From assembly GCF_044647545.1 (NCBI RefSeq), contig NZ_CP172818.1: 64,000 nt of DNA; one strand, 5' to 3'. The stretch comes from Escherichia coli. GTDB taxonomy: Bacteria > Pseudomonadota > Gammaproteobacteria > Enterobacterales > Enterobacteriaceae. The notes beneath the pieces are model-generated. The model was not told where the DNA came from, searched no databases, and saw only the letters and a list, made by a program, of their open reading frames with translations. Below, piece after piece: positions 49,175-55,317 of this stretch. Every line of letters begins with the position of its first letter. The first letter of the stretch is position 1. Position numbers and translations under genes: made by a program.

Positions 49175-50128
49175 TTAACCTATCTCCTGTAACGCATGTC
49201 TCTGGCGTTCGACGATATTGGTCCACAAATTGTCTTTATCGTCAGTCCACAAATTAATCAGCAAGGCAAAAAAGCGTTCAGCTGCCGGAGAAAGCACGGC
49301 ATCTTTGCGGCGAATAATCCCCAATGTCCGACGTATAACGGGTTCCACCAGTGGGATACCAATAATCGAAGAATAGGGCGCATGGGGCATTGCCAGACCA
49401 GGAAGCGCCGAAATCCCCAGTCCTGCCTCCACCAGTCCTAATGACGTCGAAAGATGACGCACTTCGTAAAACCAGTCCAGCTTCCAGGGCTTGTCGGCTA
49501 GCTGTTGTTCTATCAACAGTCGGTTGCCGCTGGAGGAGCGTACGCCAATCATTTTGTAACCCACTAACTCCTGCCATTCTACAAGCTGCTTTTTGGCCAA
49601 TGGATGGTCACGCCGACAGGCCAGCACGAACGGCTCGTTGACCAGTGGGGTAAAATCGATGGATGAATTTGTGACGTTGTTCATGTTTATGCCAAAGTCT
49701 GATTCGTTACACAGCACCGATTCCATGCAATTATTCGTGCCTTGTTCCAGAATCCGCACTTTAATATTGGGATACAGCTCATTAAATTTACCGATTGCCA
49801 GCGGTAAAAAATAAAATACTGCGGTCGGAATACACGCTAATGTCACCATACCACGATGATAAGCATTCATATCACGAATATTAAAAAGCGTTTCATCGAA
49901 TTTCTTTATTAATTCCCGCGCCTCCGGGAGCAATCTTTTTCCTGCTTTTGTTAACGTAACCTTGCGAGTTGTACGCTCAAATAGTTGGATATGTAAATCT
50001 TCCTCCATCTTTTTTATTCTTCGCGTTAATGCAGGTTGCGTAATATTGAGTAATTTAGCGGCATTGTTAAATGAACTGGACTCTGCCAGTATGACAAATG
50101 CCTTCATACTTGATAATTCATGCTTCAT
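49175..50128 (-). CDS. ybhD: LysR-family transcriptional regulator
   Basis: ORF track 49175..50191; canonical start MKHELSSMKAFVILAESSSFNNAAKLLNITQPALTRRIKKME (LTTR HTH); 317 aa. Confidence 0.9.
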   Translation of the reverse strand: MKHELSSMKAFVILAESSSFNNAAKLLNITQPALTRRIKKMEEDLHIQLFERTTRKVTLTKAGKRLLPEARELIKKFDETLFNIRDMNAYHRGMVTLACIPTAVFYFLPLAIGKFNELYPNIKVRILEQGTNNCMESVLCNESDFGINMNNVTNSSIDFTPLVNEPFVLACRRDHPLAKKQLVEWQELVGYKMIGVRSSSGNRLLIEQQLADKPWKLDWFYEVRHLSTSLGLVEAGLGISALPGLAMPHAPYSSIIGIPLVEPVIRRTLGIIRRKDAVLSPAAERFFALLINLWTDDKDNLWTNIVERQRHALQEIG

Positions 50129-50204
50129 TATTACTCCGGAAAATGGAAGCGTCGATTTTGGGTGGCTGGCCGTTAAAAATTTTAACTGCATTTAGCCAAC
50201 TTAA

Positions 50205-50227
50205 ATTAATGAAAAAAAGTTATTAAT
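50205..50227. promoter_or_regulatory. Candidate LysR-type regulator box (ATTAAT-N11-ATTAAT) in the ybhD/ybhH divergent region
   Basis: ATTAATGAAAAAAAGTTATTAAT fits the T-N11-A LTTR motif. Confidence 0.4.
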
Positions 50228-50311
50228 CGTTGAGCTAAAGTCATTAGAGATGCTTTGCCCTTAATGTAACCATATCGCAATAAGTTATGTTTTTAAATTG
50301 AGGGCATTATT

Positions 50312-51364
50312 ATGAAAAAAATACCCTGCGTGATGATGCGAGGTGGAACCTCGAGGGGCGCGTTCCTGTTAGCGGAACATCTACCCGAAGATCAAACGCA
50401 GCGCGATAAAATATTGATGGCAATTATGGGTTCCGGTAACGATCTGGAAATTGACGGTATTGGCGGCGGTAATCCGCTGACCAGTAAAGTCGCCATTATT
50501 AGCCGCTCCAGCGATCCGCGTGCAGATGTCGATTATCTGTTTGCTCAAGTTATCGTCCATGAGCAACGTGTCGATACCACGCCTAACTGCGGCAATATGC
50601 TGTCTGGCGTTGGGGCATTCGCCATTGAAAATGGTTTGATTGCAGCGACTTCGCCAGTTACCCGCGTACGTATCCGCAACGTCAATACGGGTACGTTCAT
50701 CGAAGCTGATGTGCAAACGCCAAATGGTGTTGTCGAGTACGAGGGTAGCGCCAGAATTGACGGCGTACCGGGTACTGCCGCACCGGTTGCGCTCACTTTC
50801 CTGAATGCCGCCGGAACCAAAACCGGAAAAGTCTTCCCGACGGATAATCAGATTGATTATTTTGACGATGTGCCGGTGACCTGTATCGATATGGCGATGC
50901 CAGTTGTCATTATTCCTGCTGAATATCTGGGAAAAACAGGCTATGAATTACCGGCAGAGCTGGATGCCGACAAAGCATTATTAGCCCGCATTGAATCTAT
51001 CCGTCTACAAGCGGGTAAAGCAATGGGCTTAGGCGATGTCAGTAATATGGTTATCCCTAAACCTGTACTTATTTCTCCAGCGCAGAAAGGCGGGGCAATT
51101 AATGTGCGTTATTTTATGCCGCATTCTTGCCATCGCGCTTTGGCGATAACCGGTGCTATTGCTATTTCCAGTAGTTGTGCATTGGAAGGCACCGTCACCC
51201 GACAAATCGTCCCTTCTGTAGGATACGGCAATATCAATATTGAACACCCCAGTGGTGCGCTCGACGTTCATTTAAGTAATGAAGGTCAGGATGCCACGAC
51301 GTTACGCGCATCTGTTATTCGGACGACCAGAAAAATATTTTCCGGTGAAGTTTATCTTCCCTGA
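50312..51364 (+). CDS. ybhH: PrpF-family isomerase (putative)
   Basis: ORF track; 350 aa. Confidence 0.85.
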   Translation: MKKIPCVMMRGGTSRGAFLLAEHLPEDQTQRDKILMAIMGSGNDLEIDGIGGGNPLTSKVAIISRSSDPRADVDYLFAQVIVHEQRVDTTPNCGNMLSGVGAFAIENGLIAATSPVTRVRIRNVNTGTFIEADVQTPNGVVEYEGSARIDGVPGTAAPVALTFLNAAGTKTGKVFPTDNQIDYFDDVPVTCIDMAMPVVIIPAEYLGKTGYELPAELDADKALLARIESIRLQAGKAMGLGDVSNMVIPKPVLISPAQKGGAINVRYFMPHSCHRALAITGAIAISSSCALEGTVTRQIVPSVGYGNINIEHPSGALDVHLSNEGQDATTLRASVIRTTRKIFSGEVYLP

Positions 51365-52873: not shown

Positions 52874-52874
52874 A

Positions 52875-53000
52875 TATACTCGTCATACTTCAAGTTGCAT
52901 GTGCTGCGTCTGCGTTCGCTCACCCCAGTCACTTACTTATGTAAGCTCCTGGGGATTCACTCGCTTGTCGCCTTCCTGCAACTCGAATTATTTAGAGTAT
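52875..53000. repeat. ERIC (enterobacterial repetitive intergenic consensus) element
   Basis: Contains ATGTAAGCTCCTGGGGATTCAC and CGCTCACCCCAGTCACTTACTT (the two halves of the ERIC core) inside an imperfect palindrome with inverted ends TATACTC...GAGTATA. Confidence 0.85.
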
Positions 53001-53055
53001 ATCCATTTATTATCTTTCTGCGCACTTCACGGTGCGCAGATATCTGGAGCATTTG

Positions 53056-55317
53056 ATGATCAAGTTATCTGAAAAAGGCGTGTTTCTCGCCAGTAATAAC
53101 GAAATAATTGCCGAAGAATATTTCACCGGCGAAATTAAAAAAGAAGAAGCCAAAAAAGGCACTATTGCCTGGTCTATTCTCTCTTCTCATAATACGTCCG
53201 GAAATATGGATAAACTTAAAATTAAGTTTGATTCATTAGCCTCTCACGATATTACCTTTGTTGGTATTGTACAGACCGCTAAAGCGTCCGGTATGGAACG
53301 TTTCCCGCTGCCGTATGTGCTGACCAACTGCCATAACTCACTCTGCGCCGTCGGCGGCACCATTAACGGTGATGACCATGTTTTTGGTTTATCGGCGGCC
53401 CAGCGTTATGGCGGTATTTTTGTGCCACCGCATATTGCGGTCATCCATCAATATATGCGTGAAATGATGGCAGGCGGCGGCAAAATGATCCTCGGGTCAG
53501 ACAGCCATACCCGTTACGGTGCGTTAGGGACAATGGCGGTTGGCGAGGGCGGCGGCGAGCTGGTAAAACAACTGCTTAATGACACCTGGGATATCGACTA
53601 TCCGGGCGTGGTTGCGGTGCATCTGACCGGAAAACCAGCGCTGTATGTGGGGCCACAGGATGTGGCGCTGGCTATCATCGGTGCCGTGTTCAAAAACGGT
53701 TACGTCAAAAACAAAGTGATGGAGTTCGTAGGTCCCGGTGTTGCAGCGCTCTCTACCGATTTCCGTAACAGCGTTGACGTGATGACCACTGAAACGACCT
53801 GTTTAAGTTCTGTCTGGCAAACCGATGAAGAAGTCCATAACTGGCTGACGCTGCACGGTCGCGGCCAGGATTACTGCCAACTTAACCCTCAACCAATGGC
53901 GTACTACGATGGCTGCATCAGCGTTGATTTAAGCGCCATCAAACCAATGATTGCGCTGCCATTCCACCCGAGCAACGTGTATGAAATCGACACGCTGAAC
54001 CAGAACCTGACCGACATTCTGCGTGAGATTGAAATTGAGTCCGAACGTGTGGCGCACGGTAAAGCCAGACTCTCGCTGCTGGATAAAGTGGAAAATGGTC
54101 GCCTGAAAGTGCAGCAGGGGATTATCGCGGGCTGTTCTGGCGGTAACTATGAAAACGTCATCGCGGCGGCGAATGCGCTGCGCGGTCAATCCTGTGGCAA
54201 TGACACCTTCTCGTTAGCGGTTTACCCGTCATCACAGCCCGTGTTTATGGATCTCGCCAAAAAAGGTGTGGTAGCAGATTTGATTGGCGCAGGCGCAATC
54301 ATCAGAACCGCGTTCTGCGGCCCATGCTTTGGCGCGGGCGATACACCAATCAATAACGGTTTGAGTATTCGCCACACCACGCGTAACTTCCCGAACCGCG
54401 AAGGCTCTAAGCCAGCTAATGGTCAGATGTCAGCGGTGGCGTTGATGGACGCTCGTTCTATCGCTGCGACTGCGGCAAACGGTGGCTATTTAACCTCTGC
54501 CAGCGAACTCGATTGCTGGGACAACGTGCCGGAGTACGCCTTCGATGTAACGCCGTATAAAAACCGTGTTTATCAGGGCTTTGTGAAAGGGGCGACCCAG
54601 CAACCGCTGATTTACGGACCGAACATTAAAGACTGGCCGGAATTGGGTGCGCTGACTGACAATATCGTCCTCAAAGTGTGCTCGAAGATCCTCGACGAAG
54701 TGACCACCACCGACGAACTGATTCCTTCCGGTGAAACCTCTTCTTATCGTTCAAATCCGATTGGTCTGGCGGAGTTTACCCTGTCACGCCGCGATCCAGG
54801 TTATGTTGGTAGAAGTAAAGCGACTGCTGAGCTGGAAAATCAGCGTCTGGCGGGAAATGTCAGCGAGCTGACAGAGGTGTTTGCGCGCATTAAGCAGATT
54901 GCTGGTCAGGAGCATATTGATCCGCTGCAAACTGAAATTGGCAGCATGGTCTATGCGGTGAAACCAGGCGATGGTTCTGCGCGTGAGCAGGCGGCGAGCT
55001 GTCAGCGTGTGATTGGCGGTCTGGCGAATATTGCCGAGGAGTACGCGACTAAACGCTACCGTTCTAACGTCATCAACTGGGGGATGTTACCGCTGCAGAT
55101 GGCGGAAGCACCGAACTTTGACGTAGGTGATTACATTTACATCCCTGGCATTAAAGCAGCGCTGGATAATCCGGGTACGACGTTTAAAGGTTATGTGATC
55201 CATGAAGATGCGCCGGTAACAGAGATTACGCTCTATATGGAAAGTCTGACTGCTGAAGAGCGCGAGATTATCAAGGCGGGTAGTTTGATTAACTTCAATA
55301 AAAACCGTCAGATGTAA
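53056..55317 (+). CDS. ybhJ: Aconitase-family hydratase (putative)
   Basis: ORF track 53032..55317; canonical start [11 protein letters not shown]; 753 aa. Confidence 0.85.

Follow-up and report, generated by a model that had tools for sequence, protein, structure and literature searches.

Among the closest described counterparts of the locus analysed here is the tarR-tarAB system of Bacillus velezensis FZB42, in which a TTATAA-palindrome operator goes together with a divergently encoded LysR activator, an aconitate isomerase of the PrpF family and an importer of trans-aconitate from the MFS family (Zheng et al. 2024, PMC11495376). We compared this system with the ybhD-ybhH-ybhI-ybhJ locus of Escherichia coli, which lies in a 64,000-nucleotide stretch of contig NZ_CP172818.1 (assembly GCF_044647545.1; hereafter, the window). 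Both loci encode an importer and an isomerase of the PrpF superfamily alongside a divergent LysR gene, with a product that enters the tricarboxylic acid (TCA) cycle as cis-aconitate in tar and would do so in ybh, and the operator is built of AT-only 6-bp palindromes (TTATAA in tar, the candidate ATTAAT in ybh). They differ in the importer, which is the MFS protein TarB in tar and a DASS protein in ybh, and tar has no dedicated aconitase-family gene. Moreover, TarR is an activator that binds trans-aconitate, whereas YbhD acts as a repressor in the sole data set. The layout of aconitate-isomerase systems of the TarA/TbrA type, in which genes for an importer and a PrpF-family enzyme lie with a divergent LysR gene, is found at ybh, and Table S6 of PMC11495376 contains Shigella, Citrobacter, Klebsiella and Edwardsiella tarA homologues of 37-40% identity that presumably are YbhH orthologues. 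Judged from sequence and gene context, we propose with slightly better than even confidence that ybhD-ybhHIJ serves, under LysR control, the catabolism of an unsaturated tricarboxylate, which is most likely trans-aconitate.

[quoted passage not shown] The steps expected at ybh would be the same: uptake, isomerisation, hydration to citrate, then cleavage by citrate lyase to oxaloacetate and acetate. In the A. fermentans genome, genes listed as 'aconitate hydratase domain' also stand beside those for MatC or citrate carriers, an arrangement resembling the Firmicute YbhJ operons described below; unlike ybh, the route was defined biochemically, with no experimental assignment of genes (PMC3035267). 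In the AcnD-PrpF pair of the Shewanella 2-methylcitrate cycle (PMC5690661), an aconitase-family Fe-S dehydratase and a PrpF-family isomerase likewise act on an aconitate-type double bond. That pair differs in its prpBC context, its 2-methyl-branched substrate and its lack of a transporter or LysR partner, and AcnD is AcnA-like, whereas its model TIGR02333 gives YbhJ 62 bits against a cutoff of 1420. The (4E)-oxalomesaconate delta-isomerase LigU/GalD with the hydratase LigJ/GalB (PDB 6P3H/J/K) share with ybh the Lys/Cys pair and the order of isomerisation and then hydration of a tricarboxylate. Their place is always in clusters for aromatic ring cleavage, together with an aldolase and a hydratase that is not an aconitase; none of these is present at ybh.

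The wider class of organic-acid modules includes ttdR-ttdAB-ttdT (L-tartrate) and citT-citCDEFXG (citrate) of E. coli and tcuRABC (tricarballylate) of Salmonella. In each, as in ybh, a regulator (LysR-type in ttd and tcu) is joined by an enzyme and by a carrier for carboxylates (DASS in ttd and cit), but enzymes and substrates are different: the ttd enzyme is the Fe-S hydro-lyase TtdAB and that of tcu is the dehydrogenase TcuA, whose product is cis-aconitate. What distinguishes ybh among LysR-gated organic-acid modules is the DASS carrier together with a dedicated, uncharacterised aconitase-family clade. Already in the literature are the Bacillus tarRAB system, the structure of YbhH (6OTV) and, since 2022, the control of ybhH by YbhD. 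An earlier note on this DNA, made from the letters alone, had held that, to its knowledge, none of this was established. That holds only in part, given YbhD control of ybhH (PMC9068703), the 6OTV structure, the RefSeq name of YbhI and the TarA table.

In the proposed pathway, YbhI, a DASS carrier and CitT paralogue, would import trans-aconitate, possibly in exchange for succinate. YbhH would then act as a Lys/Cys allylic isomerase that converts trans-aconitate to cis-aconitate, and YbhJ, as a [4Fe-4S] aconitase-type hydratase, would convert cis-aconitate to citrate or isocitrate. The product would enter the TCA cycle or, anaerobically, be cleaved by citrate lyase, whose genes (citCDEFXG) are located elsewhere in the E. 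coli genome. YbhD, acting on an ATTAAT dyad and a CATTAG motif about 65 bp upstream of the ybhH promoter, would keep the operon off until the acid or its product is present; repression by the ligand-free regulator fits the published derepression of ybhH in a ybhD deletion. Within this model we infer the substrate, the direction of flux, the co-transcription of ybhJ and the identity of the inducer. LysR-gated import, isomerisation and hydration of a tricarboxylate had been suggested before, and our comparisons support that suggestion through the YbhJ operons, the YbhH/YbhD pairs, the Klebsiella and Enterobacter context and the conserved operator box. Trans-aconitate is abundant in grasses and root exudates and inhibits classical aconitase (PMC11495376), so a dedicated hydratase would make sense. 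Trans-aconitate-assimilating Citrobacter and Enterobacter isolates have been reported, without gene assignment (PMC13188880).

A scan for YbhJ over species-representative genomes returned at least 596 confirmed relatives; ORFs (open reading frames) of the loci were called and clustered, and recurrent neighbours were named by NCBIfam and Pfam. Escherichia, Citrobacter and Edwardsiella show full ybhD-HIJ synteny at 80-98% YbhJ identity, and synteny of ybhJ with ybhD, ybhH and ybhI is also seen in Intestinirhabdus and Klebsiella. Among the matches listed, the next-best orthologues (66-73%) belong to gut and rumen anaerobes, including Lachnospiraceae, Enterocloster, Hungatella, Clostridium, Blautia, Butyrivibrio, Megasphaera, Synergistales and Collinsella. 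We counted neighbours within four genes of YbhJ in 43 non-redundant non-enterobacterial orthologue groups, among the matches listed. Citrate synthase is a neighbour in 11 groups and an isocitrate dehydrogenase (IDH)-like gene in 11, with one or the other present in 15 of the 43; citrate lyase subunits occur in 7 groups, a LysR gene in 15 and a PrpF-family gene in 4. Common layouts are YbhJ-citrate synthase-IDH and YbhJ-citD-citE-citF-citG, with operon-like intergenic gaps of 14-55 bp. In three loci (L014, L054 and L058), a MatC_N/CitMHS-like carrier gene, a PrpF-family gene (in either order) and the YbhJ orthologue are followed by citrate-lyase genes, and two of them (L014 and L058) have a divergent LysR gene in addition. 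This gene order corresponds to the Acidaminococcus route from trans-aconitate to citrate and on to oxaloacetate and acetate. Pairs of PrpF and YbhJ-family genes also recur among paralogues (L005, L048).

In the enterobacteria, the orthologous cluster of K. aerogenes and K. oxytoca lies directly beside citB-citA-oadB-oadA, and Enterobacter YbhJ is found beside the citrate-fermentation genes citB-citA-oadBAG-citS. Klebsiella has an extra CitMHS carrier gene between the ybhI and ybhJ orthologues (L086, 5683-6945; L087, 5671-6930), the position of a repeat element in E. coli. Any similarity of this carrier to YbhI or to the MatC/CitMHS-like carrier of the Firmicutes was undetectable, and so it provides no extra link.

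Two side observations concern the spread of the family. For phyla so far apart, the 66-73% YbhJ identity between E. coli and Firmicutes, Collinsella and Synergistales (loci L010-L084) is unusually high, which suggests that YbhJ has spread horizontally among gut bacteria. Separately, in some anaerobe loci (L005, L022, L048, L053 and L055) a canonical PRK07229 aconitase is encoded together with an IDH-like protein, a PrpF-family protein and one or two paralogues of the YbhJ family, which hints at a second, different tricarboxylate pathway.

YbhJ (53056-55317, plus strand; 753 aa) is an aconitase-family Fe-S hydratase with its own model, NF008503; the model that follows, PRK07229 aconitate hydratase, gives it 342 bits against a cutoff of 612, and aconitase_mito gives 122 against 825. 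AcnB, which the earlier note had chosen for active-site comparison, is a poor comparator, as YbhJ is closest to mitochondrial-type and PRK07229-type aconitases. The cluster cysteines C360, C421 and C424 are the equivalents of C358, C421 and C424 of pig aconitase, and H93, H131, D149, S150, H151, E246, R443, R448, S641 and R643 correspond to pig H101, H147, D165, S166, H167, E262, R447, R452, S642 and R644. An Arg at the spacing of R580 from the TTD motif is what we take to be the equivalent of pig R580, which binds the gamma-carboxylate, and this Arg is invariant in YbhJ orthologues. All 18 active-site positions checked are identical in 69 orthologues ranging from E. coli to Firmicutes and Collinsella, including the four unusual positions described below. 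Because of this identity, the YbhJ clade is presumably a conserved and active enzyme of single specificity. By contrast, the DSH motif and the CGPC Fe-S ligands are gone from four distant YbhJ-family paralogues at 33-38% identity (P0147, P0154, P0215 and P0217), which look like degenerate aconitase-like proteins, possibly without catalytic activity. As a separate observation, many E. coli records list YbhJ products of 634-648 aa rather than 753 aa, which may reflect alternative start calls or N-terminal truncations in some lineages.

YbhH (50312-51364, plus strand; 350 aa) is a PrpF-superfamily allylic isomerase whose sequence in the window is identical to that of the deposited structure PDB 6OTV, 'putative isomerase YbhH'. 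Its K59 and C93 align with the residues mutated in LigU structures 6P3H (K to M) and 6P3K (C to S), such that the Lys/Cys pair is kept. The nearest non-enteric homologues, at 62-64% identity, are from Pseudomonas, Dickeya and Azotobacter. The Pseudomonas locus has a LysR gene divergent from genes for the isomerase, an SDF carrier, a CitMHS carrier and an OprD-family porin; in Dickeya, the LysR gene is divergent from genes for the isomerase, an MFS protein and an FAH-family protein, followed by citC-citD-citE-citF. In both of these neighbourhoods the YbhH homologue is beside a YbhD orthologue (54-60%), and in Klebsiella, Dickeya and Pseudomonas the neighbours of YbhH homologues include YbhD orthologues of 54-65% identity. 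The constant unit across loci is regulator plus isomerase, with variable transporters (DASS, SDF, CitMHS, MFS) and downstream enzymes. Where the isomerase is accompanied by transporters only, its product should already be a central metabolite, as cis-aconitate is.

[quoted passage not shown] It gives full-length matches to many LysR models, none above an equivalog cutoff, and its orthologues carry PF00126 and PF03466 (winged helix-turn-helix and LysR substrate-binding domains). The 338-aa ORF called in the window begins at 50191, 21 codons too far upstream. We place the true start at 50128 because only the GGAG Shine-Dalgarno sequence and the ATG at this position are kept across genera (8 species), and conservation collapses upstream. 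The divergent ybhD/ybhH control region is therefore 50129-50311, a 183-bp spacer of 33% GC with three conserved islands amid poorly conserved DNA.

The first island is the candidate YbhD recognition site, an ATTAAT-N11-ATTAAT dyad with a T-N11-A core at 50205-50227, exactly as the earlier note had read it. The dyad occurs once in the 64 kb, where 0.02 copies are expected, a rarity that we dropped as evidence because it exaggerates the significance of the box. In 20,000 dinucleotide-preserving shuffles of the 183-bp spacer, any 6-bp inverted repeat at N11 was found in 11% and one of the T-N11-A type in 5%. With a local chance of 0.05-0.11 in this AT-rich spacer, the box is not significant by itself, and its conservation across species is what makes it credible. 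We aligned the spacers of 8 enterobacterial species (E. coli, E. albertii, two Citrobacter, Intestinirhabdus, Edwardsiella, K. aerogenes and K. oxytoca). The left ATTAAT (50205-50210), A50222, A50225, T50227 and the T-N11-A core are invariant, in poorly conserved flanking DNA. The exact dyad was present in four Escherichia loci, Dickeya and one AT-rich Clostridium locus among the 95 loci fetched. In Dickeya dadantii, it stands upstream of the YbhH homologue (62%) that is divergent from the YbhD orthologue (60%), and is followed after 14 nt by CATTAGAG, the same spacing as in E. coli.

The second island, the GTCATTAGAG block at 50240-50249, lies 14 nt past the dyad and is a candidate for a second LTTR site (an activation site) that overlaps the -35 region. 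G-CATTAG is invariant in 6 species including Dickeya, always 14 nt from the right half-site. The third, TGTAACCAT at 50265-50273 on the plus strand, resembles an extended -10 element for ybhH; TGnAAC(C/T)AT is conserved here in Escherichia, Citrobacter, Edwardsiella and Intestinirhabdus. If it is the -10 element, transcription would start at about 50280 and the dyad centre would lie near -64, the classical LTTR position. The ybhH promoter was placed by conservation since a consensus promoter scan of the sequence yielded no usable ybhH promoter, promoter-like sites being no commoner than in shuffles (7 vs 8.9).

Published control of the locus is described by Rodionova et al. 2022, who report one YbhD ChIP-exo (chromatin immunoprecipitation with exonuclease digestion) site, strong up-regulation of ybhH in a ybhD deletion, and control of ybhHI by Nac (PMC9068703). 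The transporter YbhI (51440-52873, plus strand; 477 aa) scores 553 bits with the DASS model TIGR00785, whose cutoff is 198.6. Over its full 477 aa it shares 33% identity with CitT, the citrate:succinate antiporter of E. coli, and the K-12 RefSeq product name of YbhI is 'putative tricarboxylate transporter'.

Several observations weigh against the trans-aconitate module. YbhJ lacks the canonical active-site shell, with Q72, D100, N258 and S643 of the pig enzyme replaced by H64, C92, V242 and A642, and citrate or isocitrate may thus not be its substrate; PRK07229-type relatives retain the canonical D-H motif. About half of the YbhJ groups among the matches listed, including all Collinsella loci, have no informative neighbours. 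A canonical PRK07229 aconitase is encoded near a YbhJ-family gene in L005, L022, L048, L053 and L055, which may mean that YbhJ is specialised rather than a redundant duplicate. YbhH is somewhat nearer to the oxalomesaconate isomerase LigU, its closest characterised structure (45.5% identity), than to the aconitate isomerase TarA (about 40% in the published table). It also passes the NCBI cutoff for 4-oxalomesaconate (OMA) tautomerase, its best model being NF033377 'OMA tautomerase' (515 bits vs 440), with 187 bits for the PrpF model. In addition, Blank et al. 2002 reportedly found the residual aconitase activity of an acnAB mutant unchanged by a ybhJ knock-out. Krisko et al. 2014, citing the same work, call YbhJ a catalytically inactive paralogue (PMC4054840), and Rodionova et al. 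label the locus 'L-malate utilisation related' (PMC9068703).

We downgraded the four non-canonical residues as evidence against citrate or aconitate, since the same residues are found in orthologues within citrate synthase/IDH and citrate-lyase operons. They argue that YbhJ should not be filed as a standard aconitase, while its gene context still points to aconitase chemistry. As to the knock-out, ybhHIJ was probably repressed under the conditions of Blank and Krisko, and if so the result of Blank et al. is uninformative.

The alternative that survives best, although we consider it unlikely, is that the module handles another unsaturated or branched acid, either in the manner of AcnD/PrpF (2-methylcitrate to 2-methyl-cis-aconitate) or in that of Mii/DmdAB (itaconate, citraconate or mesaconate to (methyl)malate). 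Mii/DmdAB of nicotinate fermentation, a methylitaconate isomerase and a dimethylmaleate hydratase, set a precedent for such a pathway. YbhH does match 3-methylitaconate isomerase 3G7K (E 1.7e-67) better than PrpF (7e-48), the Edwardsiella orthologue goes by the name '2,3-dimethylmalate dehydratase large subunit' in one source, and AcnD/PrpF provide a precedent for pairing a PrpF-family with an aconitase-family enzyme (PMC5690661). The altered shell of YbhJ and the canonical aconitases encoded beside YbhJ-family genes in some loci would also fit another acid. However, the loci examined, in which many neighbours were left unannotated, showed no recognisable prpB/prpC and no gene for a dimethylmalate lyase or a CoA-transferase, and the recurring partners of YbhJ are instead citrate synthase, IDH-like genes and citrate lyase. 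The invariance of the probable gamma-carboxylate-binding Arg further favours a tricarboxylate.

Use of L-malate or another C4-dicarboxylate, as put forward by Rodionova et al. 2022, appears improbable to us. In that study, the ybhD deletion has a growth phenotype in M9 glycerol only with added L-malate, and YbhI is 35.7% identical to the plant 2-oxoglutarate/malate translocator (PMC9068703). Yet malate requires neither an allylic isomerase nor an aconitase-type hydratase, and no malate enzymes are linked in any locus examined. A derepressed DASS exchanger that also carried malate would account for the growth phenotype as a side effect.

Slimmer still is the case for YbhH as a true 4-oxalomesaconate isomerase, its name in the NCBI Prokaryotic Genome Annotation Pipeline (PGAP), with YbhJ hydrating the product, so that E. 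coli would assimilate ring-cleavage tricarboxylates from gallate or protocatechuate degraders. The NF033377 score and the proximity to LigU speak for it, as does the homologous chemistry of the two acids: oxalomesaconate is aconitate with one inserted carbonyl, and LigU carries out the same allylic shift as occurs when aconitate is isomerised. For this very reason, the high OMA tautomerase score does not contradict isomerisation of aconitate. Genes of gallate/protocatechuate 4,5-cleavage (ring-cleavage dioxygenase, LigJ/GalB hydratase, LigK/GalC aldolase) were found in none of the E. coli, Klebsiella, Intestinirhabdus, Pseudomonas and Dickeya loci examined, nor in any other YbhH-clade locus examined. 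Instead, citrate-lyase and citrate-fermentation genes are linked to the YbhH clade, and YbhJ orthologues are found with citrate synthase and IDH-like genes. The name '4-oxalomesaconate tautomerase', which NF033377 gives to YbhH and to its Pseudomonas and Dickeya homologues (loci L092, L094 and L095), has probably been over-propagated across the clade.

We regard it as very improbable that YbhJ is an aconitase paralogue without catalytic activity, clustered incidentally with ybhHI and acting in stress or regulation: Krisko et al. call it inactive and found H2O2 sensitivity and low NADPH in a ybhJ deletion (PMC4054840), and the distant paralogues named above did lose their Fe-S ligands, but every checked Fe-S ligand and catalytic residue is kept in E. 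coli YbhJ and 68 other orthologues, ybhJ is syntenic with ybhD, ybhH and ybhI across five genera, and low NADPH is equally expected if YbhJ feeds isocitrate dehydrogenase, as it fits a reduced isocitrate supply to Icd. An 18-fold rise of ybhJ mRNA on algal biomass (PMC10972114) is compatible with trans-aconitate use and unspecific. Mentions of ybhJ in a preprint on guanosine tetraphosphate (ppGpp) were rejected as functional data, being merely a strain genotype, ybhJ(L54I).

Returning to trans-aconitate, we speculate that the altered shell (H64, C92, V242 and A642) might make YbhJ resistant to inhibition by this acid. A broader reading, which we offer tentatively, is that the YbhJ clade comprises distinct, widespread and genuine aconitases, serving as the TCA-branch or citrate-fermentation enzyme of many gut Firmicutes and as a conditional third aconitase in E. 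coli; the shell might tolerate trans-aconitate, and together with YbhI, YbhH and citrate lyase the clade would then endow E. coli and related bacteria with an unrecognised capacity to use trans-aconitate from plants in the gut. In the rumen, trans-aconitate is reduced to tricarballylate, which is linked to grass tetany. If true, a trans-aconitate route in enterics and gut Firmicutes would bear on gut carbon flow and niche competition, and four core E. coli genes of long-unexplained role would gain a function. The aconitase-family clade concerned is large and uncharacterised, and databases call its members only 'hydratase'.

The locus occupies the pgl-ybhD-ybhH-ybhI-ybhJ-ybhC interval of E. coli, is 100% identical to several complete genomes, and is present at ≥80% query coverage in 5315 of 5426 complete E. 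coli genomes. The window ORFs at 49175-50191 (minus strand) and at 50312-51364, 51440-52873 and 53032-55317 (plus strand) match RefSeq ybhD, ybhH, ybhI and ybhJ at 100% identity, with the ybhJ start corrected from 53032 to 53056 according to RefSeq limits. The divergent arrangement of ybhD and ybhH-ybhI-ybhJ that had been read from the letters is therefore borne out, and NCBIfam matches agree with the families assigned to all four proteins.

A terminator scan found no terminator-like sites between ybhH, ybhI and ybhJ on the plus strand. The ybhH-ybhI spacer contains a palindromic hairpin (51404-51424) with a perfect 9-bp stem and no T-run, not terminator-like on the plus strand and consistent with co-transcription, which makes it plausible that ybhHIJ is one transcribed unit. 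A second perfect hairpin without a T-run (53018-53039, 8-bp stem) precedes the ybhJ start codon by 16 nt. Inserted between ybhI and ybhJ, and taking up most of the spacer, is a 124-bp repeat (52879-53002) of the enterobacterial repetitive intergenic consensus (ERIC), or intergenic repeat unit (IRU), type; the 64-bp Citrobacter spacer is without it. Both sequences that we take to be the ERIC primers are contained in the repeat. An Rfam scan of the locus detected no riboswitch or known RNA, only sub-threshold V_AS5 (46.9 bits) and isrH matches that the ERIC repeat explains. The repeat may alter ybhJ mRNA stability or uncouple ybhJ from ybhHI. ERIC elements have a median copy number of 11 per E. 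coli genome. Between the convergent ybhJ and ybhC genes, terminator-like hairpins are found at 55323-55379. Within 49600-51800, GC content falls to 0.41-0.45 across the 5' ends of ybhD and ybhH.

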